Source: Escherichia phage vB_EcoM_IME392
Reading direction: 5' to 3' (one strand)
Length of the DNA stretch: 64,000 bases
Sequence record: MH719082.1
Shown here: in pieces, positions 1,663 through 64,000 of the stretch
Layout of the letters: each line of letters starts with the position of its first letter
Numbering within the stretch: position 1 is the first letter of the stretch
Position numbers and translations under genes: made by a program
Notes under the pieces: generated by a model
What the model was told of the DNA's origin: nothing
Seen by the model: the letters and a program-made list of their open reading frames with translations, nothing else
Database searches by the model: none

Positions 1663-1681
1663 TTAAGAATCTTTCCCACAT

Positions 1682-1713: not shown

Positions 1714-1739
1714 ACTAAAAAGGCTGGTGTAAATGTGAA

Positions 1740-2711
1740 CTAGCTAAACTTATACCAGCGAGGTCTCATACGGATCTCGTGATTCAGTTTATGTAGTTTC
1801 GAGAATTCGCAGAATGAGTTGGTGAACATCTGACGAGTATAGAACCGCTCATCCTCCGGCATGAAGTGGAACCATTTCTCCGGCTCCCATGCATACCCGA
1901 AATGAGCACATATCTCTTTGATGTTCTGATACCACCATTCCACGAACATCTGGTAGCCGCAAGGAGGGTTCTGGTCATTAAGCATGTACCATACCCCATC
2001 CTGCGTCCCGGGTCCACATACGATAGCATCGTTATCTGTGTACGCAGTCTCTTTAGAGTAGGACATAGTTGCCCAGCATTGATATGCCATGAACGGACCT
2101 AATCCAGATACCTGTAACAGATGCTCGATGGCCTCGGTAGCGAACGGAGACTTCCATGCCAGTAAGATAGGATCACTGTAGGTCTTCACCAGATAGGCTC
2201 TGGCAGCTACACTGTACTTAATATCCTCTGGACATACTTCATTAGCCATCTTAACTGCTGTGCTAAGGAAGTAGGCATTTGATTGCTGTGGAGCAGTGAA
2301 CGGAGGACCATCCTCATAACGACGTAGCTCTTCACGACCCATGTTATGTATGTCGTCATAGCTCATCTCATAAAGAGGAAGGACTCTGCGGAAGCGATCC
2401 ATATATGAATCACCACGGTTTATCATCTGGAAGAGTACCACGTTAAGCGCCTTACTCTCCCAGCTTAGGGAATCGTTCTCCAGAATGTTCTTGATAGCCC
2501 ATACTGTTTCACGATCGTGCTTACGGAACACGTTAGTGAATTTAAACTTACTAATCCACTTATGTTCTGTCCACGGAGGAGGTAGCTTAAGTATCTCCTT
2601 CTTATAATAAACCTCAGTCCGCTCGCGGTTATACTCCACATACTCACGTAGCTCCTCGGGATTTATCATCCCGAGTAACCCGTCGAAGTGCAAACCTAAC
2701 GGTTTAGACAT
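1740..2711 (-). CDS. Hypothetical protein of the DNA-modification module (323 aa, Trp/Tyr-rich)
   Basis: ORF with an upstream promoter-like element and an RBS. Its position lies between the kinase and the BGT-like gene. No motif is recognised by eye. Confidence 0.45.
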   Translation of the reverse strand: MSKPLGLHFDGLLGMINPEELREYVEYNRERTEVYYKKEILKLPPPWTEHKWISKFKFTNVFRKHDRETVWAIKNILENDSLSWESKALNVVLFQMINRGDSYMDRFRRVLPLYEMSYDDIHNMGREELRRYEDGPPFTAPQQSNAYFLSTAVKMANEVCPEDIKYSVAARAYLVKTYSDPILLAWKSPFATEAIEHLLQVSGLGPFMAYQCWATMSYSKETAYTDNDAIVCGPGTQDGVWYMLNDQNPPCGYQMFVEWWYQNIKEICAHFGYAWEPEKWFHFMPEDERFYTRQMFTNSFCEFSKLHKLNHEIRMRPRWYKFS

Positions 2712-10065: not shown

Positions 10066-10067
10066 AA

Positions 10068-12053
10068 TTACTCCTTAAACAGACCGTAGTCTTCTAACAG
10101 TTGGCGACGAGCACGAGATGAGTACAGCAACTTACGAGCGGCATCGAGATGCTCTTCATTATCATCGTAGGTTACCTGGATAAGACGGCGAGATTTCGAG
10201 TTAATGATGAATTGCTCAGTTTCTTCTTCGGTATATGACCCGAGTCCCTTACGACGTTCAACATAGCACTTATCGAAGTCGATCTTATCCTTCTCGTCAG
10301 CGTAGTAGAACTCGGTCTTCTTACCATTCTTAACTACATAGAACGGAGCTTCGAGTTTATACAGACGACCATCTTTAACCAGCTCTGGAGCATGGATAAG
10401 GAAGATTGAGCTAATGAGGTTACTGATGTGCTGACCATCAACATCAAGGTCGGTCATAATGATGATCTTACCGTAACGAGCCTTATCTATGTCAAACATC
10501 TGGCCCATACCACACCCGATAGTATTGATGATCGCCAGCAGCTCTGGGTTATTCACGAATTCCATGATATCCATGGAAGCCGAGTTACGCATCTTACCGC
10601 GAAGAGGAAGCACCGACTGATACTCATTACGCAACTTGATGATATTACCAGAAGCAGACGGACCCTCTGTGATGAACAGCTCACGAAGATCCCAGCGGTC
10701 GGACGGAGATTCGTAGATCTTCGCCATGTCACCATCCATAGCGGCCTTACGGTGATCATCACCCATCACCAGCTTAGACTTAATGAAGTCCATGTTGGAG
10801 AGTTTATTCAGGCTAGCTTTGTAAGCCAGGATCTTGGCAATCAGAGCATCAAAGAATTGCTTATTCTTCTCGTATACCAGGCTGAAGTAGAATGTGAGCT
10901 GACTCAGGCATTCTTTCTCGTAGAAGAAGTACTCGCCATAATAGTCGTAATCGTTGATTTGCTCATCATTCAGCATCAACTTATTCTTAGCCATGATTTC
11001 CCAGTCGCTCCAGGACATACCGAGGCCAGTTAACTTCTCCTTAGTCTGCGAGGAGAATGCTGTACGATAGCTGGAGAAGACGTTAGTGAACACGATCAAT
11101 CCCAGCTTAGCATCACCAACAGTGATAGCAGAGTTAACTTTATTCAGCATACCGCCGAGCGCTCTCGTGACCAGCTTCTCATGCAGACCACCATGCGGGT
11201 TATTGATCAAGTTGATCATGTCTACATGGGAGTAGGACATATTCTTATCAGAGTAGCCCAACTCACCAGAGAAGGTCAGACGATCGTTGAACGAGAACTC
11301 GTACTTGACTGTAGTATCGAGGAACAGCTTCTCATTCTCTGCAACATCACGACGAAAATCCCAGGTAGCCAGAGCTTCACCATTAACGGTGATAGTTGCA
11401 TCACGACCAATCAGGGAGATCTTCAGAGGAACAGTATCCACATCAGACCAGATGCTGCGGTACAGAGTCGCATCAGGCACCATGAAGACTGCTGTGGAGA
11501 AGTCGGTAGCCTTTAACGTCTCGAGCACTTCGTCTGGGAAGCCATCGTCGTGAAGATCATTCAGATCATTGATCACTCCATCGATTTCCATAACACCACG
11601 GCGGAATCCGAGGACATAGAACTGACCTGGCTCCATAGGGATGTGTGCCTTATCTCCCTGCATTACGCGACGGATTACAACGAATCGCTCGGACACTGCG
11701 TTAACAGCGGAGCTACCTACGCCATGGGTACCAGAGGTAATTTCACGGTTATCGCCCAGCTTAGAGCCAGCATGCAGATCTGTTACAGTAGAGAACAGAA
11801 TAGATTTAGACGGATCTTCCGGATCAGCGTAGATAGGAATACCACGTCCGTTATCGGTAACCAACTTGTAGGCTTCACGGTTAATGATCTGCACTAGGTT
11901 AGCATAACCATTAAGCAGCTCGTCCTCCGCATTATTGATTATTTCCTGGAGAGGATGAGTGTAGTTAATCGGGTCACCGAGATACATGGATACGTTCTGA
12001 CGAACGTTATCAGGGTAACGCAATCTTGTGATTTCAATAGCATGTTCTGACAT
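10068..12053 (-). CDS. Type II DNA topoisomerase large subunit (T4 gp39-like, GyrB-type ATPase + TOPRIM)
   Basis: GHKL ATPase motifs EIINNAEDE, DNGRGIP and GTHGVG. TOPRIM IIMTDLDVDGQHI. Confidence 0.85.
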   Translation of the reverse strand: MSEHAIEITRLRYPDNVRQNVSMYLGDPINYTHPLQEIINNAEDELLNGYANLVQIINREAYKLVTDNGRGIPIYADPEDPSKSILFSTVTDLHAGSKLGDNREITSGTHGVGSSAVNAVSERFVVIRRVMQGDKAHIPMEPGQFYVLGFRRGVMEIDGVINDLNDLHDDGFPDEVLETLKATDFSTAVFMVPDATLYRSIWSDVDTVPLKISLIGRDATITVNGEALATWDFRRDVAENEKLFLDTTVKYEFSFNDRLTFSGELGYSDKNMSYSHVDMINLINNPHGGLHEKLVTRALGGMLNKVNSAITVGDAKLGLIVFTNVFSSYRTAFSSQTKEKLTGLGMSWSDWEIMAKNKLMLNDEQINDYDYYGEYFFYEKECLSQLTFYFSLVYEKNKQFFDALIAKILAYKASLNKLSNMDFIKSKLVMGDDHRKAAMDGDMAKIYESPSDRWDLRELFITEGPSASGNIIKLRNEYQSVLPLRGKMRNSASMDIMEFVNNPELLAIINTIGCGMGQMFDIDKARYGKIIIMTDLDVDGQHISNLISSIFLIHAPELVKDGRLYKLEAPFYVVKNGKKTEFYYADEKDKIDFDKCYVERRKGLGSYTEEETEQFIINSKSRRLIQVTYDDNEEHLDAARKLLYSSRARRQLLEDYGLFKE

Positions 12054-49981: not shown

Positions 49982-51351
49982 ACATAATTCAAGATTCCTC
50001 TCTATCCTTCGACCAGATCAGAACGGATTTAGAGAACTATATTAAGTCTCTTCCAGATTATGAGACTAAGTGGAAGGACTTCTACGAGGCTGGTGCTGGC
50101 GAAACAGTACTTAATACTGGTGCTGGTATCACTGCATTCTTAGCTTACGCTGCCTACATGAACCGCCGAGATTCGTTACTGGATTTCGGCAATATGACCT
50201 CGACCATCGTGTCTATTGGGTCTGCATTAGGTTACGTGTATAATCGTAAATCTGCTCCTCTTCTCCAGATTACGTTTACATCCACTGAGCAAGTTTACTG
50301 GGATAAGGAAGATCCTATCGGTAACTACATGGGTCGTTCTCTGGTTCTCACCAACTCCACCCAAATAGAAGTTGGCGTGAACACCATTGTGGTTGCTATA
50401 GGTGATTGGGTCTCTCAGGAGATAACCATCACTGATGCTAAGGATTTTAAAGGTATCAACGTACCTATTCAGCCTGATAATAATCTGGTTAACCTGTATA
50501 TCGATGGAGAGAAGATCTCCTACACCACAGCTGCGGAAGATATGGATTCGGACAATGTCCTAATTCGTTCTTACTTCTCGGGAATATTCATTATCTTCGG
50601 GAACGGGTCACTGGGCAGGAAGGCTGCTGTTAACCAGGTACTTAAGATAGAGTACGTTGCTCCCGCTGATAAACTAGATGGGTTAACTCTGGATCCTACC
50701 AAGATTCAGTTATACGTTGAAAATACGAGTAACTCATCTGAAGTTAAATACCCTGGGTCAGACCCTGATAGTCCTGAGAAGATCGTTGCTATTGCTCCTG
50801 GTTATTATTCAGCCAAGAGACGTCTGGTTACTCTGGACGATTACGCTTCGATAGGTGCTTCTTATCAGGGTGTGGTAAGTGCTAACGCTGCTCTTCCGAC
50901 TACTTCTTGCTGCTCGGTTAACGTCTCGTACCTACGAGCCGATGAATTAACCATGAATGATGCTATGAAGGCAGATTTCGAGAAGTATATGCTGCAGTAC
51001 GCCATGCTGGGTTCTAACATAAATGTTATAGACCCTATCAGGATCATGGTCGATGTTAAGATGCGAGTGGTTATTGACTCCGGAGCTGATACGGATGCCA
51101 TTACCAAGAAGATTCGTGAAACCATAAATAAAAAGTGCATGACTAACGGTGCATTCTTTACGGTTAACGATATGACTCTGCCAGAGTCTCTTCGCGTTAG
51201 ACGTATCTACATTAAGCAGCCTATTCTTGACCGACAGGCTAAGTACAATGAGTACTATAAGCTCCGCAAACTGGAGATCAGTTATACGGAAGATCGGACT
51301 CTGGTAGATTCCGGAGGCACAGATAAGAATGCGGGGTATGAGTATGGCTAA
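49978..51351 (+). CDS. Baseplate J-like protein (gp6 / P2 gpJ family, putative)
   Basis: 457 aa, ATGA-coupled to the gp25-like gene. Position as in P2/T4 W-J. Confidence 0.4.
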   Translation: MNIIQDSSLSFDQIRTDLENYIKSLPDYETKWKDFYEAGAGETVLNTGAGITAFLAYAAYMNRRDSLLDFGNMTSTIVSIGSALGYVYNRKSAPLLQITFTSTEQVYWDKEDPIGNYMGRSLVLTNSTQIEVGVNTIVVAIGDWVSQEITITDAKDFKGINVPIQPDNNLVNLYIDGEKISYTTAAEDMDSDNVLIRSYFSGIFIIFGNGSLGRKAAVNQVLKIEYVAPADKLDGLTLDPTKIQLYVENTSNSSEVKYPGSDPDSPEKIVAIAPGYYSAKRRLVTLDDYASIGASYQGVVSANAALPTTSCCSVNVSYLRADELTMNDAMKADFEKYMLQYAMLGSNINVIDPIRIMVDVKMRVVIDSGADTDAITKKIRETINKKCMTNGAFFTVNDMTLPESLRVRRIYIKQPILDRQAKYNEYYKLRKLEISYTEDRTLVDSGGTDKNAGYEYG

Positions 51352-52822
51352 GTTCAACACTCTAGATTACTTCTCTCCTAACCTTAGAGGGAACGAGTTA
51401 TATAAGTTCTTCTCGCAGGTGCTGGATCATGGTCTAGAGACTGTTGTCTTTCCGGAGATGGATAAAAATACGGCGATTTATGATCCTAGTAAACCGTCTT
51501 ATGATCCGATTTATATCCTGGAGCTACTGGGTCAACCAGACTTAGCAGATCTCATAACTACCGAGGTAGACCAGAACTCAGTATCTGTACTCCTCCCAAG
51601 TATCCTTGATAACAAGGGTATGAAGGATGGGGTTGATCTTATCTTTAAGCTGATAAATGTAGAGATAGAAGAGATATTGTATCAGAAGACTCCGGAAGGC
51701 TGCTCACTGGCAACCATCCTGCTTCCTAAGAACGTGATCTTGTCTACTCGGCAGATTAAGCTAATTGATCGTCTGTCGCGTAAGGTATTTCCGATATGCG
51801 TAAGACTTACCGGTATCGCTAACTGTCTTCCAGATGGCGTTGAATCTCTCGGAAGCGCCTCCTTGGACACCAGTTGGTTGCTAGACACATCAATCCTGGA
51901 TGGTTCAGTAGGTATACGAGTCCCAGATATTTCGGATACTCTATGGCTGCGATTCTGTCTCGATATTATGTCGGAGATGGAAGTACCTCTTGAAGTGTTG
52001 ATTGATCGCTTCTCGGATCGTCTGATGAACTCTTATCTGACTGTATTCGATAGGAGAACTATCAAGCTAGATAATGGTCTTATTCTGGATATGGGTACAT
52101 ACTTAGATCTCCAGAATACCGACACTGCTCACAGCAGACTCTATAGCTCATTGGCTAAGTTTAATGTAGATTTAAGCGCCGATTCCAGAACTACTGAGAT
52201 TGAGTCCTTACTGGACTTATCAGACTTGGTAGCTGGGTTGGAGTTTAAGTCCTCTATGCTGCGTGAGATCTTCCTGTTCTTGGATATCGACCTCTCAGAG
52301 TTCGGATTCCAGAATTACATGGATAGGAAGATAGAGCACTTATCCAAGGGGATAGAGCAAGTAAATTATGGATATGAGGGTGGTAATTACGCTGATGGTT
52401 ACGATTTAACTAACTATCAGGGTTTCGAATACGAGAACTTATACGTAATCCAATCTCATCGTGATGGCCAAACTCAGCGTAGCGGGACGGCTTATTACGG
52501 ATTGCCGGAAATAGACTGGCTACACTTCGAAGGTATGGACTTCATTAATGGGTCTTACCTGCTGGATGGTACTCGTTATCTTCACCAGGAGTTCATTAAA
52601 AAGATCAAAGTGTACGATTGGTATACTCATTGGTCTAGCTACCGAGAAGCTATGTTCCTAACCACTCATAAGACCGAAAGACTCTTAGAGAAACGGGATG
52701 GGACTATTCTCCATGACGGAACTTATAATCGCGGTGAGAAAGTAACTCGTTACGGATTCGAACCTCTGTACAACGACGTTATTAGTCACGATGATACTTA
52801 CTATCGCGATGCCAATCTATAG
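51344..52822 (+). CDS. Baseplate wedge / P2 gpI-like protein (putative)
   Basis: Start ATG 51344 (MAKFNT) overlaps the stop of the J-like gene. 492 aa. Confidence 0.3.
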   Translation: MAKFNTLDYFSPNLRGNELYKFFSQVLDHGLETVVFPEMDKNTAIYDPSKPSYDPIYILELLGQPDLADLITTEVDQNSVSVLLPSILDNKGMKDGVDLIFKLINVEIEEILYQKTPEGCSLATILLPKNVILSTRQIKLIDRLSRKVFPICVRLTGIANCLPDGVESLGSASLDTSWLLDTSILDGSVGIRVPDISDTLWLRFCLDIMSEMEVPLEVLIDRFSDRLMNSYLTVFDRRTIKLDNGLILDMGTYLDLQNTDTAHSRLYSSLAKFNVDLSADSRTTEIESLLDLSDLVAGLEFKSSMLREIFLFLDIDLSEFGFQNYMDRKIEHLSKGIEQVNYGYEGGNYADGYDLTNYQGFEYENLYVIQSHRDGQTQRSGTAYYGLPEIDWLHFEGMDFINGSYLLDGTRYLHQEFIKKIKVYDWYTHWSSYREAMFLTTHKTERLLEKRDGTILHDGTYNRGEKVTRYGFEPLYNDVISHDDTYYRDANL

Positions 52823-52830: not shown

Positions 52831-53598
52831 ATGAGCAATTATACTGGGGCATTTAACTTTCATGCTCAGGTGTACCAATTTGAAGAAAGTGATGTGGTTA
52901 AAGGTGGCCCGGACGGCATTGATAACGTGCCTCTTACCCAGCTGTCAGATCGTACGTTTTATCTTAAGGCTCTTGCTGACTTTACATTCCTTAAGCTATT
53001 CAATCTTAATCCTCTCGGCTCGTTCAAACAAGGATTCCAGATTAACGTGGCTGGGTATGCGGTCTTCGACGAGGCCTCCGGTAAGTGGTTTAAGTGGACA
53101 GGATCTCTACCTAAAGTAGTGGTTAAGTCTTCTAAGCCAGAAACTACTGGAGGTATCTATGATCCAACCACCAATCCGAGCGGTAAGTGGGTGGCTATTG
53201 ACTTCAGTGTTCTAGACCTTGGCGCTGGGGTTAAGATCCCTACAGCAGCTGCTCCTGGTAATCTGTATAGCGGTAAGTACAATCCAGCCTTCGTTAAGAT
53301 TGAGAATGTCTCCAATCTAGACATAGCAGAAGCCATATATACCAGACTAGGGAATGTGGTTACTGTTAATGGCAAGATCACTGCTTCTGCTACCGATGCC
53401 GGAGAAGTAATGAAAATAGGAATTGGCTTACCTATTAACGCTACCTTCTCAGATGACTCAAGCCTCTCAGGAGTTGGCGTTGGTATAGTAGCTGGTCAGA
53501 TTTATGCCGATGTGGACAGTAGTGTGGCTGTTCTTGAGATTAATCAGGGTAGTACAGACGAGCTGTCTCTGAGATACACGTTCTCTTACACTATATAA
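52831..53598 (+). CDS. Tail fibre/tailspike-associated protein with shared N-terminal anchor module
   Basis: N-terminal ...GGPDGIDNVPLTQLSDRTFYLKAL... and G.W.KW.GSLPK.V motifs are shared with 53611, 59505 and 62616. Confidence 0.45.
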   Translation: MSNYTGAFNFHAQVYQFEESDVVKGGPDGIDNVPLTQLSDRTFYLKALADFTFLKLFNLNPLGSFKQGFQINVAGYAVFDEASGKWFKWTGSLPKVVVKSSKPETTGGIYDPTTNPSGKWVAIDFSVLDLGAGVKIPTAAAPGNLYSGKYNPAFVKIENVSNLDIAEAIYTRLGNVVTVNGKITASATDAGEVMKIGIGLPINATFSDDSSLSGVGVGIVAGQIYADVDSSVAVLEINQGSTDELSLRYTFSYTI

Positions 53599-53610: not shown

Positions 53611-54528
53611 ATGGGTACTTATCAGGGTAAAAATCAGTACGTAGAGGACATCTATACCTTCGAACGTACTGACAAAGTGTCGGGTGGTGATGACGGTATT
53701 GATAACGTACCCATTAAGAATCTTACCGACAGAACTACATATCTCCGTAGTCTAGCATTGAATTCATTCCTGGATATCTATGGGATTAACCCAGTAGGTA
53801 CTTTCGGGATAGGATTTGATCTCCAGGACTCTGGGGATGGTGTGTATGACGAGGTGTCTGGCAAGTGGTATTACTGGCTAGGCTCCTTCCCCAAATCTGT
53901 TGCCGAGAATTCTTCTCCGGAAGATACTGGTGGTATCTTCGACCCAGAAAGTAATCCAGATGGATTATGGACTGAGGTAATTCCGGTAAACCAGCGTCAG
54001 GTAGATATGGCTGCTCGGGCATTCCGAGTTAAGACCGAAGAAGTCCAGTTCATGAAAGTAGGTCGTCCTCTCGACGGCTTTCGTGTATTGTATGACTTAG
54101 CTTCCCAGGAAGCTTATCGTTTACCTATGGATATCCCTGAAGGATCAACTATTGTTAGCTTAACAGACGGAGGGTGGCTAGAGCATAGCAATGGCAGGGT
54201 AAACTTATCTGCTTACGCCGTCGAATTAGAAGAGTATAAGTACTTTACCGGAGGCGACTTCAGTACCGGCTTTACTCTACGTCAGAACCACTGCATAGTT
54301 ATGCATGATGGTGTTCTGTATCGCTGGGATGGCGATTTTCCGAAGACCGTAAATGCTAACAGTACTCCAGAATCAGACGGTATTGGTGATGGTAAATGGG
54401 TTCCTGTTAAGACTGGTGCCCTGTATCGCTATGCTACTGTTGCCCAGTTAGATAGTGTTGAGAATGCTCTAACTACTCGCATAAACGAAGTAGAGAGCGC
54501 CGCTTTTGTTAACGCATTACTGTTCTAA
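53611..54528 (+). CDS. Tail fibre/tailspike-associated protein (paralogue of 52831)
   Basis: N-terminal 120 aa are paralogous to 52831. The G.Y.W.G.FPK.V...S.P...G module occurs twice. Confidence 0.45.
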   Translation: MGTYQGKNQYVEDIYTFERTDKVSGGDDGIDNVPIKNLTDRTTYLRSLALNSFLDIYGINPVGTFGIGFDLQDSGDGVYDEVSGKWYYWLGSFPKSVAENSSPEDTGGIFDPESNPDGLWTEVIPVNQRQVDMAARAFRVKTEEVQFMKVGRPLDGFRVLYDLASQEAYRLPMDIPEGSTIVSLTDGGWLEHSNGRVNLSAYAVELEEYKYFTGGDFSTGFTLRQNHCIVMHDGVLYRWDGDFPKTVNANSTPESDGIGDGKWVPVKTGALYRYATVAQLDSVENALTTRINEVESAAFVNALLF

Positions 54529-54537
54529 GGAATACCC

Positions 54538-54879
54538 ATGGCAGCTAAATTTAAACGAGCTAGCGCTACGCTAACTAAATCTGAATCTACCATTTATACT
54601 ACTCCGGCTACTGGTGCTATAATCGTTGGAATCCTGGCAGCCCATAATGGTGTTACAGATGCTGCAGCTCAGTTTCAGCTTAAGATTAAACCTGCATCTG
54701 GAAATGATGTATACCTGCTAGGTAAAGACACTAATCTTCCTCAGAAGTCGGCATTGAATATCGATTCTGCTAAGGTAATTCTCATGGATGGTGATCAGGT
54801 AGTAGCTTCAGCATCTGCTGTAGATACTTCTAATAACTCGAACATGGTAGACCTGACTCTTTCCATTGTGGAGAACTAA
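54538..54879 (+). CDS. Small hypothetical tail-fibre-cluster protein
   Basis: 113-aa ORF with RBS AAGGA. Confidence 0.4.
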   Translation: MAAKFKRASATLTKSESTIYTTPATGAIIVGILAAHNGVTDAAAQFQLKIKPASGNDVYLLGKDTNLPQKSALNIDSAKVILMDGDQVVASASAVDTSNNSNMVDLTLSIVEN

Positions 54880-54880
54880 T

Positions 54881-56227
54881 ATGGGTGGTTATATTGGTTT
54901 CAATCCATCTGATGGTGCTGGTGAACTTCGTAATGAATTGACTCCTAAGATCAAGAACAACCAGGATAACATCATCGAGTTGTGGGCGAATGACTTAGCC
55001 GATTGTGGTTACAATCTGGCAGCTACTTTCGAGTTCGGTGGTATCTTATCTAACCGATTCGATCTGGTAGTATCTCTTGATCGTCAGCGTGCATATTCAT
55101 GGAAGGGTAACTTTCCAGTAGATATTGCAAACGCACCTATCACCCATTCTAATTGGGTACCTTGGTCGATCGACCAAATGGGTGCTGGTAACTTATTGGA
55201 AGTTAAGTGGGTATCCTCTCGTAAGTTATTAGGGTCACCATTATGGGGTGGATTCGTAGCAGCTGATGGTGGTATCTTCTCACGTATCTTGTATCCTGAT
55301 ACTTGGGCAGCAGTCAATGCTGGACTAGTACAAGTATGTCCTGAAGCTGACTGGGTAGCTGATCCTACTAAGCGCCACTGCTATACTACTGGTGATGGTA
55401 CTACTACCTTCCGAGTACCTGACTTAAATGGTGCGTACCGTCATCCTAGTGACTCCTCTAAGAACTCCATTCCAGGATTATTCTTACGTGGTGATAATGG
55501 TAGTGACTACGGATACGTCCAGCGTAATGCTGCACCTAATATTACTGGTATTATACAAGGTCGTACTTCTGGTACTTATGGTCGACTATTCAGTCAATCT
55601 ACTATTAATAGTGGAGCATTACAAACTAGTGATGAGAATGGTGGTGAATTCGCTACTGGTACAGTAACTGCATCGACTCCATCTGATCGTATGAGTAAGT
55701 TACTATTTGATGCATCAAAATCACTTACACCAGGTGCTGAGGCTTACGGTCGTGCTGAACCTAATGGTGCACCTGCTGATGAAGTCCGACCTAACAGTGC
55801 AGTAGGTTGTTACGCTATCCGTCTACAAGGTCGAGTTGTGAATCCCGGTACGGTGGATCTGTTATCATTAGTTGATACAGTTGCAGGTATGACTATAGGT
55901 AATACACCTAGCAGTAATCAGATTCCTAACATGAAGCATTGGACTCGTGGAGGGTCAGGTCGTGCATGGTGGAGGAAAGAACCTGATGGATTCATTAGAC
56001 AGGGAGGATTCTTTACTGCTAATGTTAGACCTGGTTCAGGTACTAAAGTGTACGTTGATGTAACATGGGCTATACCATTCCCTAATGAATGTAACTCAGT
56101 AACCGTAGGTGATGCTGGATTCGGTGATGGTAATATGTGGGGCGCCACTAATATCACCAGGACTGGAGCTCGTTTATGGTGTAGCGCAGTAGGCGAGGGT
56201 GGTTACTACTTGGCTGAGGGCTACTAA
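54881..56227 (+). CDS. Tail fibre protein with phage tail-collar-like domain
   Basis: Start ATG 54881 after GGAGAA. The ORF-track start 54866 is TTG. ...KRHCYTTGDGTTTFRVPDLNGAYRHP...LFLRGDNGSDYGYVQRNAAPN is paralogous to 56667. Confidence 0.55.
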   Translation: MGGYIGFNPSDGAGELRNELTPKIKNNQDNIIELWANDLADCGYNLAATFEFGGILSNRFDLVVSLDRQRAYSWKGNFPVDIANAPITHSNWVPWSIDQMGAGNLLEVKWVSSRKLLGSPLWGGFVAADGGIFSRILYPDTWAAVNAGLVQVCPEADWVADPTKRHCYTTGDGTTTFRVPDLNGAYRHPSDSSKNSIPGLFLRGDNGSDYGYVQRNAAPNITGIIQGRTSGTYGRLFSQSTINSGALQTSDENGGEFATGTVTASTPSDRMSKLLFDASKSLTPGAEAYGRAEPNGAPADEVRPNSAVGCYAIRLQGRVVNPGTVDLLSLVDTVAGMTIGNTPSSNQIPNMKHWTRGGSGRAWWRKEPDGFIRQGGFFTANVRPGSGTKVYVDVTWAIPFPNECNSVTVGDAGFGDGNMWGATNITRTGARLWCSAVGEGGYYLAEGY

Positions 56228-56655
56228 TGGCTAATTATCTATATAGCAATTCTCGTAAATCGTTCTATCCAGTATCGTTAATAGAAAATTATCAAAATAG
56301 CATAAACGGATTACCTGAAGATTTAGTAGAAGTCAGTGATTCTGACTTTAATGAATTTTCTCAGAGTCGTACTAATGAGTGCTGTAATTTAACTGAATCA
56401 GGATTCGAGTGGATTCCTAAAGGTCCTGAACCAGTATCAGTCGAAGATGCTCATCGTATCAAGAGTATCTTGATAAATAGTGCTAATAAGACTATTAGTA
56501 CCTGGCAGACTAAGTTGATGCTTAATAGACTATCTGACGAAGATAAAGTCAAACTGAATGCTTGGTTGGACTACATCGATGAGCTGGAAGCTATCAATCC
56601 TGACTCAGTAGAAGATACATCAGCTATCCCGTGGCCTACTGCTCCTGAAGCATAA
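56227..56655 (+). CDS. Tail fibre assembly chaperone (Tfa-like)
   Basis: C-terminal LNRLSDEDKVKLNAWLDYIDELEAINPDSVEDTSAIPWPTAPEA matches the Caudovirales tail-fibre-assembly-protein C-terminal pattern (...W.DY...L.....P..WP..P). Confidence 0.55.
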   Translation: MANYLYSNSRKSFYPVSLIENYQNSINGLPEDLVEVSDSDFNEFSQSRTNECCNLTESGFEWIPKGPEPVSVEDAHRIKSILINSANKTISTWQTKLMLNRLSDEDKVKLNAWLDYIDELEAINPDSVEDTSAIPWPTAPEA

Positions 56656-56666
56656 AGAGGTATAAA

Positions 56667-58118
56667 ATGTCAAATGGATATATTGGTACCTACCCTAAAT
56701 TCGCTATTTATTCTCCTGAGAAATTGGCGAAAGGTACCACCACTAAGACTCTGCAGTATGCTCCAGGATCAGCTTATGCAATTCTGGTAGTAGTAGGCGG
56801 GGCGATTCAGGAACCTAACGTAGCCTATACTGTAGCAGGTAATGTCATTACTTTCACGGAGACGCTCCCGTACGATGGATGGGTTCAGTACCGTGGACTT
56901 GAAGGTAAGGATGCTACTGACTTTATCGCAGCTGCAGGTGATCCAGTACTATCAGCACGTTGGGCATTCTCACGTGATCATATCTGGGATGGATTCGTTC
57001 CACTAGATGGTCAGGAATTATCTCGTGCTATGTACCCGTCAGCATGGGAGGCTATCAATGCTGGATTAGTACCAGTCGAGGATGATGCTGCATGGTTGGC
57101 TGATCCCAAGAAACGTGCATCGTTTACTAAGGGTGATGGTACTTCAACATTCCGAGTACCTGACCTTAATGGTAAGTTGGGTGATTCTATAAAGGGACTG
57201 CACATCCGTGGAGATAATGGTGATTCAGCTCGTACCGGTAAAGTACTCCAGAATGGCGCTCCGAATATTACAGGATACACTAATTTATTAGGGTATAACA
57301 CATGGGCAAATAATGCCGGAGCGGCCAACGGTGCATTAAACTTAAGCCAGGGTTTAGCATTCTCCAACGGTACCGATTTAGTTGTAAACTCTTCTTACAG
57401 AGAATTAAGAGCTAATTTAGATGCATCTAAATCTAATGCATCTTATGGTCGTGACGGCACTGATGAAGTGCGTCCTAATGCAGCTATTGGATGCTGGGTA
57501 GTCAAGTTATTCGCAGGTATCGCTAATGCTGGTGTAGCTGATCTGCAGCAAGTGCTAGTCACGTTAGCTGGTAAGATGGATAAGACCAAGTACGAATTCG
57601 GTGTACCAATGATTGGCGTACCATTCTACTGGCCATCGGATAAGATGCCTGATGAAGTATATCCTGAGCTGAAAGGTATGCACTTCATCCAAGCTCGTGG
57701 TGATAACTTCGATGCTGAACTGTATCCTAAGTTAGCTACTGTTTATCCTAATAATAAGTTACCAGATTTACGTGGTGAATTCATCCGTGGTTGGGATGAC
57801 GGACGTGAAGTGGATACTGGACGAGCTCTGCTATCGCGTCAATCACATTCAATTATTGAACACTCACACTATATGGAGTTGTGGACAGGTGACGTACTTC
57901 ATTCTGGGGATGCTAGAGATGGGGTAAATGCAGGAGTACTGGCTACCTATGGTGATGGTGGGTCAATTAAATCTGACGAATCAGGTAATCATGTACCCTC
58001 CTTAGTACGAGCTATTAATACTCGTAATATTAATCGTTACAACGTAAATAGCGAAAATATAAGCACAGAAAACCGTCCACGTAACGTAGCATATAACATC
58101 ATTGTAAGGGCATTATAA
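56667..58118 (+). CDS. Tail fibre protein with phage tail-collar domain
   Basis: ...KKRASFTKGDGTSTFRVPDLNG... and C-terminal LPDLRGEFIRGWDDGREVDTGRAL, the canonical collar-domain motif. Confidence 0.65.
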   Translation: MSNGYIGTYPKFAIYSPEKLAKGTTTKTLQYAPGSAYAILVVVGGAIQEPNVAYTVAGNVITFTETLPYDGWVQYRGLEGKDATDFIAAAGDPVLSARWAFSRDHIWDGFVPLDGQELSRAMYPSAWEAINAGLVPVEDDAAWLADPKKRASFTKGDGTSTFRVPDLNGKLGDSIKGLHIRGDNGDSARTGKVLQNGAPNITGYTNLLGYNTWANNAGAANGALNLSQGLAFSNGTDLVVNSSYRELRANLDASKSNASYGRDGTDEVRPNAAIGCWVVKLFAGIANAGVADLQQVLVTLAGKMDKTKYEFGVPMIGVPFYWPSDKMPDEVYPELKGMHFIQARGDNFDAELYPKLATVYPNNKLPDLRGEFIRGWDDGREVDTGRALLSRQSHSIIEHSHYMELWTGDVLHSGDARDGVNAGVLATYGDGGSIKSDESGNHVPSLVRAINTRNINRYNVNSENISTENRPRNVAYNIIVRAL

Positions 58119-58726
58119 TGAGCATTGAATTTAACGATCAAGGTTTTGCCACCACTTCTGGTAAAGTGATGGTTTATAACTACAATGAAGATACTCGTGA
58201 ATTCACATTTAATCGTGAAGAGTTTATCTACGTAGGTGTATCGGTACCAGCTCACTCCACAATCGTTCCAGTGCCTGCAGAACGTGAAGGATATGCTCGA
58301 GTGTATCATGAAGATACCAAGAAGTGGGAATATGTAGAAGATCACCGTGGAGTAGAAGTTTACTCAAAAGCTGATCAAACTAAAGTAACTATCCAGGAAC
58401 TCGGACCTATCGACGATATCTACACTACGATTGCTCCTACTTCAATCCATGATAATTGGGATGAAGATACTGGTGCATGGGTACTAGATGAAGTTGCTGA
58501 GCACGAAGCTAAGGTGGTTGCGGCTGATGCCAAGAAAGTAACATTGATTGAGGATGCTAATGCTTATATCAATAGTAAGCAGTGGCCATCCAAACTGGCA
58601 ATGGGCCGACTGAGCGATGCTGATAAAGTCAAGTTCAATTTGTGGCTAGATTATCAGGAGGAAGTAGAAGCTATTGAAACTACTGATCCTGATACTATCG
58701 TATGGCCAGAAGCACCTGCTAAGTAA
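58118..58726 (+). CDS. Tail fibre assembly chaperone (Tfa-like), paralogue of 56227
   Basis: C-terminal MGRLSDADKVKFNLWLDYQEEVEAIETTDPDTIVWPEAPAK. Confidence 0.55.
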   Translation: MSIEFNDQGFATTSGKVMVYNYNEDTREFTFNREEFIYVGVSVPAHSTIVPVPAEREGYARVYHEDTKKWEYVEDHRGVEVYSKADQTKVTIQELGPIDDIYTTIAPTSIHDNWDEDTGAWVLDEVAEHEAKVVAADAKKVTLIEDANAYINSKQWPSKLAMGRLSDADKVKFNLWLDYQEEVEAIETTDPDTIVWPEAPAK

Positions 58727-58801
58727 TATTTATTAAGGGGTAGTTATGTCAATTAATTACATGACTCCAGATAGTATCGTGATTGTAAGTGAGGTGTCAA
58801 T

Positions 58802-59425
58802 ATGAGCCTCACCCGTCTTAAGTATTTAATGAACGAAGGTACAGATGCTGAAGTTGAAGCGTATCTACGCCAGCTGGGTATCGGTAATGGAGCTCCATTA
58901 ATAGGAGTACCGTTCCCGTGGGTTCATCCTACCAAGATGCCTGATGAGATATTTACTTCAATGAAGGGTATGCGATTTCTGAAGATGAATGGTCAGACAT
59001 TCGATCCAGAAACATACCCAGAACTGGCTAAGCTATGGACAACTAATCAGTTACAAGATCTACGTGCACAATTTATCCGTGGATGGGATGACGGTCGAGG
59101 CATGGATGCAGGACGAACGATCAATACTGGTCAGTCAGATTCTGCCCCAGAAATATCTGGTTGGTTCAGGACTGTTAATACTGAGAATGCATCAATCTGG
59201 GAAAGCATAACATCAGGATTTGGTTCTGGAGCTCTCTACGGTACTAATACTAAAGGTCAGTATTATAGATTAGCGGGACTTCCAATGGATATTAACGCTA
59301 CCTATAAGTATCCTACAGTAATTAACTTCTTGGCATCACGATCATCTTCAGTATATGGACGAAACGGCACCAATGAAATTGTACCTAAAAACGTAGCATT
59401 TCTGTACATCGTTCGAGCTAAATAA
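58802..59425 (+). CDS. Short tail fibre protein with tail-collar domain
   Basis: LQDLRAQFIRGWDDGRGMDAGRTIN collar motif. 207 aa. Confidence 0.6.
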   Translation: MSLTRLKYLMNEGTDAEVEAYLRQLGIGNGAPLIGVPFPWVHPTKMPDEIFTSMKGMRFLKMNGQTFDPETYPELAKLWTTNQLQDLRAQFIRGWDDGRGMDAGRTINTGQSDSAPEISGWFRTVNTENASIWESITSGFGSGALYGTNTKGQYYRLAGLPMDINATYKYPTVINFLASRSSSVYGRNGTNEIVPKNVAFLYIVRAK

Positions 59426-59504: not shown

Positions 59505-62492
59505 ATGTCTTATAATCCAATTGTAGAAGGGTCAACTTGGCCCGAGACTATTCGCCGCTTAGAAAAGACGGATAGGGCAGAAGGCGGTCAACTAGTTACT
59601 AATTCTAAGGATGAACCAGTATCCGGACATATTAATCATCCAATAACCCAATTAGCTACTAGAACCTCCATTTTAAAAAAGTCTAATTTATCGATAATTA
59701 ATAATACTAAAGAACAGTGGAAGTTATTACTCGGTGACTTAGGACTAACTCTTGTTGGCACTTTTGAAGAAGGTGCTACAGTAAACAGTAAAAAGGATGC
59801 TGTCTGGCATATTGATGGTGGCCAGTGCTACGTGTGGGGTGGCGTGCTCCCTAAGACTGTATATGCTAACTCCTCACCGCTAACTACTGGTGGTGTCTCT
59901 TCTGATGCTTGGGTTAGTATTGGTGATACCGCACTGCGAGGGCAAATATCAGACCCGGATGGTGCAACAAAATACCCCGAATTGCAGATTGCTCGATGGC
60001 GTGACATTTTCGACCCTCGTGGTTGGGGAGCTAAAGGTGATGGATTAGTCGATGATACTGTGGCTCTTAATAATCTGTTAAGCGCTGCTCCAGTAGGTCA
60101 GAAAATTAATGGTAACGGCAGAACCTATAAAGTATCCGCACTTCCAGATATTAGCAGATTCGTTAACACTCGTTTCGTTTATGAGCGTATTCCTGGCCAG
60201 CCGCTTTATTATGTATCTGACGAGTTTGTTCAGGGTGAGTTAATTAAAATAACCGATACCCCTTATTACAATGCTTGGCCTCAGGATAAAGCGTTCGTTT
60301 ACGACGATGTTATTTACTGTCCGTTCATGGCTAGCGATCGGCACGGGGTTAGCAGGCTTCATGTATCCTGGGTTCGCTCAGGTGATGACGGACAGACCTG
60401 GACGACCCCGGAGTGGCTAACTGACCTACACCCTAATTACCCAACAGTTAACTACCACTGTATGAGTATGGGGGTGATGCGTAATCGTCTCTTTGCGATG
60501 ATTGAGACCCGTACTTTAGCAGCTAACGCATTAGTGACCTGTGAGTTGTGGGATCGCCCCATGTCCCGTAACTACCATCTGACAGGTGGTATAACAAAAG
60601 CTGCCAACCAGCCTGTGGCTGTAATTACCATCCCTGAACACGGTCTTTTTGCTGGGGATTTTGTTAACTTCTCGAACTCTGGGGTGACTGGCGTTTCTGG
60701 GAATATGACTGTAACTTCAGTTATTGACCGCAACACGTTTACAGTTACCACGCCAAATCAACAAGCATTCGACCAAAATAACTCTACCAGCCGCTGGCAT
60801 ATGGGGACATCGTTCCATCAGTCACCATGGCGTAAAACCAGCCTTGGATTGATCCCTATGGTTACCGAGGTTCACAGTTTTACCGCCATCAATAACGATT
60901 CATTCATGATGGGGTACCATCAGGGTGATGTTGCTCCGCGTGAAGTAGGTATGTTGTATTTCCCTGATGCATTTAACAATCCTGGGCATTATATAAAACG
61001 ACGTATCCCTGCTGAATATGAGCCGGATGCGGCAGAACCCTGTGTTAAATATTTTGACGGTGTTCTTTATGTTGTAACCCGTGGAACTCGGTCGGACCGT
61101 CTGGGTAGTTCGCTTCATCGTAGTAATGATTTGGGTATAACCTGGCAATCATTGAGGTTCCCGAATAATGTCCACCACTCCACCCTGCCATTCGCTAAGG
61201 TAGGAAACGAACTGATTCTTTTCGGCACTGAACGCGCCGACAACGAGTGGGAAGCAAACGCACCCGACCAGCGATATTTTAGTTCTTACCCACGAACGTT
61301 TTACACGCGAGTGAACCTCGACACCTGGAACCTGGATAATACTCAGTGGGTGAATATCACTGACCAGATTTATCAGGGTGGTATTGTTAACTCTGGCGTC
61401 GGTGTCGGATCGGTCGTCGTGAAAGATAGTTATATCTATTACATGTTCGGTGGGGAAGACCATCTGAACCCATGGACATATGGAGATAACTTAGAGAAAG
61501 ACCCATTCAAATCAGACGGTCATCCCTCAGATTTGTATTGTTACAAAATGCAGATCGGTCCAGACAATCGTGTTTCTCGTGATTTCAGGTACGGTGCTGT
61601 ACCTGACAGAGCGGTTCCAGTGTTTTTTGATACGAATGGAGTTCGCACTGTTCCTGCTCCAATGGAATTTACAGGGGATTTGGGTTTAGGTCATGTGACC
61701 ATTAGAGCCAGCACCAGTAGTAACATTCGCTCTGAAGTTTTAATGGAAGGTGAGTATGGGTTTATCGGGAAATCTGTACCGACTAATAACCCTGCAGGTC
61801 AGCGCATCATATTTTGCGGAGGCGACGGTACCAGTTCTTCTACTGGTGCACAGATTACGCTTTACGGTGCGAGTAACACAGCTTCTCGCAGGATAGTTTA
61901 CAACGGAGATGAGCATCTGTTTCGGAGTGCTGATGTTAAGCCTTATAACGATAACGTCATTGCGCTTGGTGGGCCTAGCAACCGTTTCACCACTGCATAC
62001 CTCGGAAGCAACCCTATTGTTACTTCTAACGGAGAGAAGAAAACAGAGCCGGTAGTTTTTGATGATGCTTTTTTAGATGCTTGGGGCGATGTTCATTACA
62101 TCATGTATCAGTGGTTGGATTCTGTACACCTGAAAGGAAATGACGCTAGAATCCATTTTGGCGTAATTGCTCAGCAGATCCGCGATGTATTCATTGCTCA
62201 CGGTCTGATGGATGAGAACAGCACGGATTGCCGCTATGCTGTTCTGTGTTACGACAAATATCCTCGCATGACAGACATGGTGTTCTCTCACTATGAAATA
62301 GTTGAACACACTGACGAGGAGGGTAATGTCACTACCACGGAAGAACCTGTATACACCGAGGTGGTTATTCACGAAGAGGGTGAGGAGTGGGGTGTGAGGC
62401 CTGATGGAATTTTCTTTGCTGAGGCAGCATTCCAGAGAAGAAGACTGGAAAGAATCGAAGCCAGACTTTCCGATCTTGAAAAGAAGCAGTAA
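59505..62492 (+). CDS. Tailspike/depolymerase-like protein: N-terminal anchor module, pectate-lyase-like beta-helix, C-terminal S74 intramolecular chaperone domain
   Basis: WGAKGDGLVDDTVALNNLLSAAP (pectate-lyase_3-like). The C-terminal ...SNGEKKTEPVVFDDAFLDAWGDVHYIMYQWLD...IHFGVIAQQI...RLERIEARLSDLEKKQ is typical of the peptidase-S74 autocleaving chaperone domain. Confidence 0.65.
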   Translation: MSYNPIVEGSTWPETIRRLEKTDRAEGGQLVTNSKDEPVSGHINHPITQLATRTSILKKSNLSIINNTKEQWKLLLGDLGLTLVGTFEEGATVNSKKDAVWHIDGGQCYVWGGVLPKTVYANSSPLTTGGVSSDAWVSIGDTALRGQISDPDGATKYPELQIARWRDIFDPRGWGAKGDGLVDDTVALNNLLSAAPVGQKINGNGRTYKVSALPDISRFVNTRFVYERIPGQPLYYVSDEFVQGELIKITDTPYYNAWPQDKAFVYDDVIYCPFMASDRHGVSRLHVSWVRSGDDGQTWTTPEWLTDLHPNYPTVNYHCMSMGVMRNRLFAMIETRTLAANALVTCELWDRPMSRNYHLTGGITKAANQPVAVITIPEHGLFAGDFVNFSNSGVTGVSGNMTVTSVIDRNTFTVTTPNQQAFDQNNSTSRWHMGTSFHQSPWRKTSLGLIPMVTEVHSFTAINNDSFMMGYHQGDVAPREVGMLYFPDAFNNPGHYIKRRIPAEYEPDAAEPCVKYFDGVLYVVTRGTRSDRLGSSLHRSNDLGITWQSLRFPNNVHHSTLPFAKVGNELILFGTERADNEWEANAPDQRYFSSYPRTFYTRVNLDTWNLDNTQWVNITDQIYQGGIVNSGVGVGSVVVKDSYIYYMFGGEDHLNPWTYGDNLEKDPFKSDGHPSDLYCYKMQIGPDNRVSRDFRYGAVPDRAVPVFFDTNGVRTVPAPMEFTGDLGLGHVTIRASTSSNIRSEVLMEGEYGFIGKSVPTNNPAGQRIIFCGGDGTSSSTGAQITLYGASNTASRRIVYNGDEHLFRSADVKPYNDNVIALGGPSNRFTTAYLGSNPIVTSNGEKKTEPVVFDDAFLDAWGDVHYIMYQWLDSVHLKGNDARIHFGVIAQQIRDVFIAHGLMDENSTDCRYAVLCYDKYPRMTDMVFSHYEIVEHTDEEGNVTTTEEPVYTEVVIHEEGEEWGVRPDGIFFAEAAFQRRRLERIEARLSDLEKKQ

Positions 62493-62615: not shown

Positions 62616-64000
62616 ATGGGCGGTCGTTCTAAGTTATTTAGCGAACTGGGCGGAGCTCCTCTTAATACTTATCAGCATGATAACCAGACTCTCGATATTC
62701 GCGAGTTAGAAAATCAGCAGAAAGTATTAGACGAGACTCTTGCCGAAACAATAGGCAACGTTAACGAGTTGCAACAGACTGCTGGTCAGTCTATGTATAT
62801 CCTCGGTAACTATGCCTCCGGAATGGTGATCGAGAACGACCGCCAGTACGTCAGATATGATAATCTGCTGTACTATTGGACTGGTCCTGTACCGTTCACT
62901 ACCACCGGCAACTTCTACGAAGAATCCTACTGGACTGGTGGGGTACAGAGCGGTATCGAGTGGAGTTACGAGGTACAGGAAGATGGGGAATTCGAGTTTA
63001 ATATTCCTTACTCCTTTACCAACGTACGTCTATTCGTAGGTGGTGTCCGCCTTACTCGCGTAGAAGATTACACTATCGATGTGATTAATCGCAAGATCAC
63101 TCTGACTAAGGTTAAGCTGTCGAAGGGTGTCCTGGTGACTGCCGAGCTGAACTCTCGTGATGCTCTTAGCGTTACCCAGGATCGCATCGATAGCCTTACC
63201 AGAGAGATCTCAGAGAAAGTAGGTTTCGTTAATTACAAACTTACTGATCTGTCTGAAGGTCAGAGCCTGACTCTCACTACCAGAGTCCAGACTGTAAGCT
63301 TCTCAGTAAATGGGGAGTATTATAAATGGGATGGCGTTCTTCCTAAAGTTGTTAATTATGGAGATCCGGAGCCATCTCAATCTGAACAGGGGACTGGTAA
63401 GTGGATTCCTGTAGGTTCTGGTGCTCTTAAGTCAGAGCTCATGACTGCTGGCGAAACTACTGGTGCTGCTATTGTCTATCTGAGATATGGTGGCACGGTG
63501 GCTGATGGTATTCGATACATCACCCCAGAAATGGCTCGAGCTAAAGGCGACGGTACTACGGACGATACAGCAGCTCTTCGCTCTGCTGTTACCCTGGCTA
63601 AGACTTATGGTCTTAAGCTTATGGGTATGGGTACTTACAAGATCTCTAACCAATCGGTGGATATTTCCGGGGTAGTGATCGAGAACCTAACCATAGTTGG
63701 TACCGGTGCTAGTTCACAGCTGCTGGTTAATGGCGATACGGACATAACTAAGCTGAACCTTAGCAAATGCGGTATTCGTCACATCAACGGTATCTTTAAA
63801 CTCGACCAGTTCGAAATTAATGACTGTTCTGCGACTGCTGCTCTGCTGTGTCAGCAATTAGCAGCTAATAGCCAACTGTTCGTCACTAATGGTATTATGC
63901 GTCGCTGTAACTATGGTTACCTCCGTCAGGGTAGTCCTGCATCTTCCAAGCCGCTCACTGCGACTCTGCTACAGAACTTACAGTTCTTCGACATGAAGAG
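62616..64000 (+). CDS. Second tailspike-like protein (partial; continues beyond window end)
   Basis: ATG 62616 after GGAGA. The frame is open to 64000 by own translation. MARAKGDGTTDDTAALRSAVTLAKTYGLKLMG is a pectate-lyase-like motif, and the YKWDGVLPKVV anchor-module variant is present. Confidence 0.5.
   Translation, partial: MGGRSKLFSELGGAPLNTYQHDNQTLDIRELENQQKVLDETLAETIGNVNELQQTAGQSMYILGNYASGMVIENDRQYVRYDNLLYYWTGPVPFTTTGNFYEESYWTGGVQSGIEWSYEVQEDGEFEFNIPYSFTNVRLFVGGVRLTRVEDYTIDVINRKITLTKVKLSKGVLVTAELNSRDALSVTQDRIDSLTREISEKVGFVNYKLTDLSEGQSLTLTTRVQTVSFSVNGEYYKWDGVLPKVVNYGDPEPSQSEQGTGKWIPVGSGALKSELMTAGETTGAAIVYLRYGGTVADGIRYITPEMARAKGDGTTDDTAALRSAVTLAKTYGLKLMGMGTYKISNQSVDISGVVIENLTIVGTGASSQLLVNGDTDITKLNLSKCGIRHINGIFKLDQFEINDCSATAALLCQQLAANSQLFVTNGIMRRCNYGYLRQGSPASSKPLTATLLQNLQFFDMK

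Follow-up and report, generated by a model that had tools for sequence, protein, structure and literature searches.

The region between positions 54538 and 59425 of a 64,000-nucleotide stretch of the genome of Escherichia phage vB_EcoM_IME392 (MH719082.1; the whole stretch is referred to below as the window) probably represents one acquired receptor-binding module. This module is made up of a small open reading frame (ORF), orf113, two tail fibre genes (fibA and fibB), each with the gene of a tail fibre assembly (Tfa) chaperone behind it, and the gene of a separately translated mini-fibre, fibC.

In the arrangement proposed here, fibA and fibB would form trimeric fibres, each with its tip folded by the Tfa protein coupled to it, i.e., the Gp53-like tip of fibA would be folded by Tfa1, and the tip domain of fibB (D2) would be served by Tfa2. 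The fibC protein, in turn, would trimerise as a knob of the type found in the T4 proteins gp37 and gp12, and would most likely share Tfa2, encoded upstream, with fibB; this would account for the lack of a dedicated chaperone. It would most likely dock on the fibre apparatus through its N-terminal peptide and so add a receptor specificity, with orf113, the N-terminal regions of fibA and fibB, and Tfa2 itself as the candidate docking partners. The fibA-type and fibB-type tips are presumably expressed together, and relatives of the module appear to carry two plug-in tips of the fibC kind; the multi-receptor host range suggested in a preliminary description of the region is a reasonable inference from these sequences.

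The features of the module are the following:

54538..54879, + strand: orf113, 113 amino acids (aa), which opens the module and at which the drop in the GC content of third codon positions (GC3) begins.
54881..56227, + strand: fibA, a tail fibre of 448 aa with a weakly Tail_spike_N-like N-terminus, the domain D1 and a Gp53-like_C tip.
55193..55888, + strand: D1 of fibA (aa105-336), a collar-type core with a variable insert at ~55550-55763, placed by the conservation profile and the blastn mosaic.
56227..56655, + strand: tfa1, a tail fibre assembly chaperone (142 aa) whose N-domain (56227-56475) is variable and whose C-domain (56476-56655) is conserved.
56667..58118, + strand: fibB, a tail fibre of 483 aa in which an N-terminal beta-repeat precedes D1, a linker helix and the D2 tip.
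56946..57572, + strand: D1 of fibB (aa94-302), with a variable insert at ~57175-57488.
57600..58118, + strand: D2 of fibB (aa312-483), a gp37/P1-Sv-type collar, a hypervariable head at ~57828-58067 that contains H399-S-H401, and a conserved C-terminal strand.
58118..58726, + strand: tfa2, a tail fibre assembly chaperone of 202 aa.
58802..59425, + strand: fibC (S protein), a tip-only mini-fibre of 207 aa.
58802..58888, + strand: N-terminal peptide of fibC (aa1-29), MSLTRLKYLMNEGTDAEVEAYLRQLGIGN, the proposed docking element.
59132..59371, + strand: hypervariable head of fibC (aa111-190).

Organization and horizontal transfer of the six-gene block

The five ORFs from fibA to fibC, which had been recognized in the preliminary description, are all present on the + strand at the positions listed, and all of them are preceded by Shine-Dalgarno-like sequences. 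The fibA/tfa1 and fibB/tfa2 junctions both consist of an overlapping TAATG stop/start, which indicates the translational coupling of each Tfa to its fibre; fibC follows a spacer of 75 nucleotides (nt) and has a GAGG ribosome-binding site (RBS) of its own. Nothing above the shuffled controls was found in the promoter and terminator scan or in the RNA folding of the spacers around fibC. The genes of the cluster are already annotated as tail fibres, in an otherwise well-behaved region: in the 116,460-bp GenBank record of IME392, the products identical (100%) to fibC and fibB are named “putative tail fibers protein” and “putative collar fiber protein”, respectively, and no published description of the IME392 fibres was found in the literature search.

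The AT-richness ascribed to this region is real, with a GC content of 42.8% as against 45.9% in the flanks. The six consecutive genes of the module have GC3 values of 0.29-0.32 (0.298 in orf113), which are the six lowest among the 58 ORFs of the window, the other 52 having a mean of 0.467±0.045 and a minimum of 0.385 (Mann-Whitney p 3.6e-5). The module (54538-59425) begins one gene upstream of the region that was originally outlined, at orf113, which is 88-97% conserved in all the relatives. No Pfam or PDB match was obtained for this small protein, a single other cluster was retrieved among 5.8 billion proteins, and homologues of known function were detected in none of these searches; its position and conservation suggest that it may act as an adaptor.

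In three uncultured contigs of ~112-113 kb (L004, L006 and L007), the block is 85-94% identical at the nucleotide level, and in L004 and L006 this identity begins exactly at 54537 and ends at ~58852, i.e., ~50 nt into fibC. The rest of these contigs has only a 23%-identical baseplate protein in common with the window. Their GC3 (~0.27-0.40) is like that of the module, and this composition gives a hint of the L004 type being nearer to the donor. The module is also carried by L003, a contig with an IME392-like backbone. A megablast of the fibre region against the GenBank phages returned no match, and the sole GenBank relative retrieved by this method is EP_H11, whose structural genes are 95.6% identical as far as ~51958 and in which homologues of the six module genes were looked for, and none was found.

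As the block is shared by unrelated backbones, these data are direct evidence of whole-block transfer: the module was acquired horizontally and has moved as a whole between unrelated backbones. The horizontal exchange proposed in the preliminary description is thus borne out by the GC3 island, the identity with phages of unrelated backbone, and the absence of the block from the nearest backbone relative. The unit of this exchange is not the pair of fibre and Tfa, however; it is the whole block from orf113 to the S genes (the family of fibC, described below), plus sub-genic pieces.

These pieces can be seen within the module, where the conservation profile and the blastn comparison reveal conserved stretches alternating with replaced ones, the latter being the D1 inserts, the D2 head, and a unit formed by the fibA tip and the Tfa1 N-domain. 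The module is, in this sense, a clean natural example of where recombination cuts, that is, at the borders of variable inserts and between the two Tfa domains.

A further junction lies upstream. The identity with EP_H11 stops at ~51958, inside the gene at 51329-52822 (497 aa; the protein is 63% identical overall), which places a recombination junction between the backbone and the receptor-binding protein (RBP) genes within a coding sequence.

Domain homologies and chaperones of the fibres

In the preliminary description, the three fibres were regarded as paralogous, and pairwise alignment indicates that their similarity is not limited to low-complexity Gly/Thr runs, given that it is strong and spans whole domains. 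The paralogy is chain-like, however, rather than common to all three. In BLASTP comparisons, fibA aa105-336 aligns with fibB aa94-302 (40% identity, E 5e-41), which defines D1, and fibB aa312-483 aligns with fibC aa30-206 (35% identity, E 2e-32), which defines D2, with a secondary alignment between fibB 175-280 and fibC 87-205 (E 4e-7); between fibA and fibC, no significant similarity was found (best E 0.35). The two motifs believed to run through all three fibres are distributed in the same way, with GDGT(T/S)TFRVPDLNG found in fibA and fibB only (in D1) and RGWDDGR in fibB and fibC only (in D2).

When the D1 and D2/S alignments of five phages were compared profile to profile with hhalign, a probability of 92% and an E of 5e-7 were obtained; D1 and D2 are distant homologues, and the relationship of fibA to fibC can be seen in profiles only. 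Two internal repeats of LtfA, the L-shaped tail fibre protein of the T5-like phage DT57C (PDB 8hqz), are homologues of D1, with E 1.4e-33 for fibB D1 and 8e-30 for fibA D1. The Pfam Collar family (PF07484, cut-off 24) is matched by fibB D2 at 40.9 bits (aa338-373) and by the isolated fibB D1 at 24.3 bits, and this cut-off is not reached by fibC (17.8 bits) or by fibA D1 (17.4 bits). The collar homology of the last two is nonetheless established by their links with fibB (E 2e-32 and 5e-41) and by the gp37 collar profile (E 6.7e-18).

This last value comes from the comparison of D2 and fibC with the tip of T4 gp37 (2XGF), which is matched by the profile at E 6.7e-18 and by fibB D2 alone at E 3.9e-10; the “short tail fiber” 9cuy and T4 gp12 are matched as well. 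The 2XGF match takes in the N-terminal collar and the extreme C-terminal strand, “RPRNVAF.YIVRA”, and the stretch between the two is not alignable. A single HxH motif is present in fibB D2 (H399-S-H401), which aligns with an HxH of gp37, and one is found in several S paralogues; fibC has none.

In the alignments of the relatives, the four collar-type domains of the module follow one plan, in which 60-100 hypervariable aa are inserted between a conserved core and a C-terminal strand that is likewise conserved. Together with the C-terminal tip of fibA (aa367-448), which belongs to Gp53-like_C (PF21882, 29.4 bits against a cut-off of 24.9), they provide the module with five hypervariable surfaces.

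The opposite ends of the two fibres are conserved, with 94-100% conservation of the N-terminal 100 aa of fibA and of fibB in all the relatives. The N-terminus of fibA, a protein that matches the PHROG tail-fibre families, has a weak resemblance to Tail_spike_N (PDB 8x8m at E 0.0013; Pfam at E 0.01, below threshold). That of fibB contains a small beta-repeat which occurs twice in the Klebsiella K1 depolymerase 9k4a (E 8e-6), and the AlphaFold2 (AF2) model of fibB, with a mean predicted local distance difference test (pLDDT) value of 42.8, was too poor for a fold search. Both proteins open with a GYIG motif (MGGYIGF in fibA, 54881-54901; MSNGYIGT in fibB, 56667-56690), which may be an attachment element.

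The chaperones that had been recognized after the first two fibres are confirmed by Caudo_TAP (PF02413), at 68.5 bits for Tfa1 and 61.9 bits for Tfa2 against a cut-off of 22.1, and by PHROG 188 and 105 (“tail fiber assembly”), which match the Tfa proteins at E 6.5e-31 and 1e-57. The view of these genes as tandem cassettes of fibre and Tfa holds insofar as there are two fibres, each with its Tfa, but the cassettes are not duplicates of one another. Only the internal D1 and the Tfa C-domain are shared by the two, and the tips differ (Gp53-like_C versus a gp37/P1-Sv-type collar), as do the Tfa N-domains, which are unrelated: Tfa1 and Tfa2 have only their C-terminal 64 aa in common, at 50% identity. 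The homologues of tfa2 combine Caudo_TAP_N with Caudo_TAP, and Tfa2 is 90-92% conserved across all the relatives; no close relatives of tfa2 were found in IMG/VR, only P2-like prophages at 37-56% identity. The third fibre does lack a chaperone of its own, as had been observed, given that no Caudo_TAP gene follows fibC and that the next gene encodes an endosialidase, which carries its own S74 chaperone domain.

The relatives also reveal which parts of the chaperones change along with the fibres. In L003, where the fibA tip is 95% identical to that of IME392, the Tfa1 N-domain is 92% identical, and in L004-L007, where the tip has only 24-29% identity, the N-domain falls to 27-28%, with the Tfa1 C-domain still 73-78% identical. 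The Tfa1 N-domain therefore co-varies with the fibA tip. In the case of Tfa2, the N-domain and the D2 collar are each 93-97% identical across the relatives, while the D2 head has 23-25% identity, a combination which suggests that Tfa2 recognises the conserved frame of the D2 collar and not the head. Both patterns agree with a published model of Tfa proteins as two-domain chaperones, where binding of the fibre tip is assigned to the variable N-domain and trimerisation to the conserved C-domain (PMC9608196).

The tip-only S proteins and the proposed role of fibC

Genes of the same type as fibC, referred to here as S genes, encode proteins of 176-211 aa and are found in one or two copies directly after tfa2 in every relative. 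Ten of them are intact, in L002-L007, L017 and L018, and each has its own ATG and a GAGG RBS. All ten copies start with MSLTRLK(Y/Q)LM.EGTD.E...YL..LG.G.GAP, which is followed by the conserved collar, a segment of 60-100 aa that is fully divergent, and the ending RP(R/K)N(V/I)AF.Y(I/M)(V/I)RAK. Rather than the orphan that it was first taken for, fibC is thus a tip-only mini-fibre from a family that is small, conserved and shuffled and whose N-terminal peptide is under selection, and it is no decaying fragment.

The N-terminal peptide is kept in all the S1 and S2 paralogues of five or more phages, although the 5' ends of the genes have many synonymous nucleotide differences. Among the S paralogues, the proportion of synonymous differences (pS) is ~0.7 in every segment (0.70 in the peptide), and that of nonsynonymous differences (pN) rises from 0.17 in the N-terminal 29 codons to 0.28 in the collar and 0.63 in the head. 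Given the saturated synonymous sites and the lowest pN of the protein, the peptide has been maintained by selection on the protein, and not by homogenisation of the DNA. In the head (aa111-190 of fibC), pN/pS is ~0.9, and this segment is unalignable among the S paralogues. A search of all six frames of the window for a second copy of the peptide found none.

The AF2 model of fibC is confident only for the helices at 4-12 and 15-24 (pLDDT 70-78), the collar at 32-90, and the last strand. Its top match in Foldseek was 2XGF (E 1.3e-4, template modelling score, TM, 0.23), with the middle of the model being unreliable. By sequence, the head of fibC resembles the fibre tips of E. coli and Salmonella prophages and the “variable tail fiber protein” ORFs of 168-182 aa, with 43-45% identity.

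The order of the S types varies among the relatives, with the fibC-like gene being first in L002 and second in L018. In the latter (1143-1677), this gene is frameshifted, which is due either to its being a pseudogene or to an assembly error. In L006 and L007, S2 (10001-10534) and the fibB of the same contig are identical over 45 nt in the collar and match at 92% over 26 nt at the 3' end; these matches flank the head and would be consistent with a past exchange of heads between S2 and fibB. No recent gene conversion between fibC and fibB was found in IME392, where their longest exact match is 14 nt. The spacer also differs between phages, given that in relatives the stretch from tfa2 to the first S gene (L003 9242-9348, L004 9192-9296) contains a GC-rich hairpin that includes 8-10 consecutive G, and further hairpins lie ahead of the second S gene; at 58727-58801, IME392 is ~32 nt shorter, between two ACTCC repeats, and its folds are not significant.

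A number of points weigh against the reading in which fibC is a docked tip folded by Tfa2. The S collars are only ~45-55% identical to the collar of fibB D2, the AF2 models are of low confidence outside the collar cores, and no docking partner for the N-terminal peptide was identified by sequence; both the presence of fibC in the virion and the action of Tfa2 on it are inferred. Moreover, the dependence on chaperones within the module is not absolute, given that L017, a Logan contig (SRR10902854) with an IME392-like backbone, encodes (435-3238) a fibA of 453 aa with a different Gp53-like tip and then fibB directly, with no tfa1. In Yersinia phage PY100, a short fibre with a gp37-like collar follows a Tfa that has no similarity to Tfa1 or Tfa2, and a D2-type tip may therefore not need the neighbouring Tfa.

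A wider form of the docking proposal is possible, but can be advanced only tentatively. According to this, all the S proteins would be plug-in adhesins, in which the peptide docks interchangeable gp37-like tips on one scaffold and Tfa2 folds all of them, so that the whole repertoire is displayed at once. If this were true, a lytic phage would show simultaneously the tips that temperate phages pick singly by inversion, and the gain, loss and reordering of S genes would retune the host range with the fibre genes left untouched.

The PY100 and L017 arrangements may also be accounted for if fibC were a fibre of the virion that folds alone or with a general chaperone, whether a phage protein of the gp57A type or one of the host, and not with Tfa2. 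T4 gp12, which has the same collar fold, needs only gp57A. This alternative is nevertheless unlikely, as every S gene found is directly downstream of a Tfa2 with at least 90% conservation, the Tfa2 N-domain tracks the frame of the collar and not the head, and the pairing of a D2-type tip with a Tfa2-type chaperone is kept as far as the P2-like prophages, at 37-39% identity.

The S proteins might, instead, never enter the virion, and act as soluble trimeric knobs, either set free at lysis or at work within the infected cell, which mask the receptors (superinfection exclusion) or guard the progeny from adsorption to debris. Such a role would be compatible with the lack of a shaft or a recognisable baseplate-attachment domain, with only 29 aa ahead of the collar, and with translation apart from the coupled fibre-Tfa pairs, together with the intergenic hairpins of the relatives. 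It seems quite unlikely, however, because the S genes lie inside the structural RBP block and were transferred along with it, and because a conserved peptide on divergent paralogues is what would be expected of a common docking element; the fibC sequence also has no signal peptide or membrane segment.

The possibility that fibC is a non-functional leftover, or a silent spare cassette that acts as a recombination donor for the fibB tip, draws on the frame it shares with fibB D2, in which a conserved collar and C-terminal strand surround a variable head. The L006/L007 matches, the frameshifted gene of L018, and the variation in the order and number of S genes would also agree with it. We consider it decidedly improbable, given that ten S genes are intact, each with its ATG and GAGG RBS, that their most conserved segment (pN 0.17 versus pS 0.70) is precisely the N-terminal 29 aa, to which nothing in fibB corresponds, and that fibC and fibB of IME392 match exactly over 14 nt at most.

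Fibre-Tfa pairs, collar domains, mosaic exchange and multi-RBP phages are already known, and the module is an informative but fairly ordinary case of the mixing of receptor-binding parts in phages. What is new is the delimitation of a transferable module of six genes, a tip-only family with a selected peptide and an apparently shared chaperone, and the correspondence with two-armed invertible segments that is discussed in the next section. Should both the docking through the peptide and the sharing of Tfa2 prove true, the module would offer a compact modular scaffold for host-range engineering, in which a new specificity could be added through the insertion of a gene of ~600 bp, with neither a rebuilt fibre nor a new chaperone.

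Neighbouring genes and comparison with known systems

On the downstream side, the module is followed by an endosialidase gene (59505-62492), whose product combines Tail_spike_N and K1F-type catalytic domains with a Peptidase_S74 chaperone. The catalytic part has 87-90% nucleotide identity with those of the endosialidases of the unrelated phages YX22 (155 kb) and UE-S5a (74 kb), and ~79% with that of K1F, and this identity with unrelated phages suggests that the gene beside the module was acquired horizontally in an event of its own. It is succeeded by a tailspike gene which runs off the end of the window (62616-64000), and whose product has Tail_spike_N at aa217-267, a pectate-lyase-like start, and, in its N-terminal region, the same small beta-repeat as the fibB N-terminus. 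Upstream, 52831-53598 and 53611-54528 encode proteins of 255 and 305 aa with Tail_spike_N and no enzymatic or fibre domain, which are likely adaptors for tailspikes; the N-terminus of a 780-aa protein of EP_H11 matches both at ~39%.

The pairs of fibre and Tfa in IME392 are like those of lambda (Stf/Tfa), P2 (H/G), Mu (S/U) and P1/p15B (S/U), with homologous tips and chaperones, a chaperone gene immediately 3' of the fibre, and a Tfa with a variable N-domain and a conserved C-domain (PMC9608196). A parallel in organization is found in a P2-like prophage contig (L009), where a fibre gene with a D2-type tip at its end (39% identical) precedes the gene of a Tfa2-type chaperone (37% over the full length). 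The inverted arm of this contig contains a Tfa1-type chaperone (Tfa', 32% over the full length, E 1e-19) and a short Sv' ORF with a Gp53-like tip of the fibA type (E 2e-6), and the arms adjoin an invertase of the Hin/Gin type. From these similarities, and from that of fibB D2, which, head included, is 59% identical to a p15B-type Sc/SvN protein, the two types of tip and chaperone correspond to the two arms of the invertible segments of temperate phages of the P2, Mu and P1 kinds.

Unlike Mu G, P1 C, e14 P and p15B Min, IME392 has neither an invertase nor inverted arms. Neither the window (best E 1.4) nor any of L002-L007 was matched in a tblastn search with the L009 invertase, and the search for crossover sites yielded only inverted repeats of up to 17 nt, 82-93% complementary and at chance level, with all the module genes on the + strand. 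Given the lack of an invertase and the single orientation, the two types that alternate in the invertible segments sit here in tandem. Both are borne on complete co-directional fibre genes, in a lytic myovirus of 116 kb, and are therefore presumably displayed together and not alternately, and the module has, in addition, tip-only genes that start from separate start codons and encode a conserved peptide at the N-terminus. It thus links the tip repertoires of lytic phages with the phase-variable repertoires of temperate phages and plasmids.

It follows from the same data that there is hardly any chance of fibC being an alternative C-terminal exon of fibB, joined to it by a programmed DNA rearrangement as in those four systems: the 43-45% identity of fibC with E. 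coli prophage ORFs named “variable tail fiber protein”, the Sc/SvN similarity of fibB D2, and the invertase of the prophage with the same tip/Tfa pairs would favour this, but there is no invertase homologue in the window or in the loci of the relatives, the repeats do not exceed chance, fibC has a conserved start, RBS and N-terminal peptide of its own, and a deletion between direct repeats would remove tfa2.

The likeness of fibB D2 and fibC to T4 gp37 and gp12 lies in the collar, the variable distal part, and the return of the chain to the collar. Unlike gp37, fibC has only 207 aa, with no shaft and no HxH, and the chaperone in its vicinity is of the Tfa type, and not gp38 or gp57A. In DT57C, the LtfA repeats to which the D1 domains are homologous belong to a fibre described as branched, in which LtfB is attached through LtfA (PMC10713586). 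This phage is a siphovirus, and its fibre has an intramolecular chaperone instead of a Tfa. The parts of LtfA that are like D1 cannot be seen in the 8hqz structure, so that a docking role of D1 is not demonstrated there.

The order of fibB, tfa2 and fibC is matched by that of ORF81-82-83 of PY100 (L019 3086-6234), which encode a D1-type fibre, a Tfa, and a short gp37-like collar fibre without a chaperone of its own. The ORF81 product has two D1-type domains, one of them with several HxH. Unlike IME392, PY100 has a single fibre-Tfa pair, and its ORF83 encodes 255 aa with a different N-terminus of 70 aa and many HxH repeats; no mention of ORF83 was found in a paper related to PY100.

Finally, short conserved N-terminal anchors, by which divergent RBPs are fastened to one scaffold, are described for the branched tailspike systems, such as those of K1-5/SP6, the Klebsiella KP32 type, CBA120 (TSP1-4) and G7C (gp63.1/gp66). 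The S proteins may resemble these in concept, being divergent proteins that have one short conserved N-terminus (pN 0.17 versus 0.63 in the head), and IME392 also resembles the anchor-branch phages in having adaptor-like Tail_spike_N proteins and tailspikes beside the module. Of the gp38 adhesins of S16 and T2, similarly, that of S16 is attached to gp37 via short N-terminal helices (PMC9608196). Unlike the proteins of all these systems, however, the S proteins are collar-type fibre tips, and neither beta-helix tailspikes nor adhesins of the gp38 fold.

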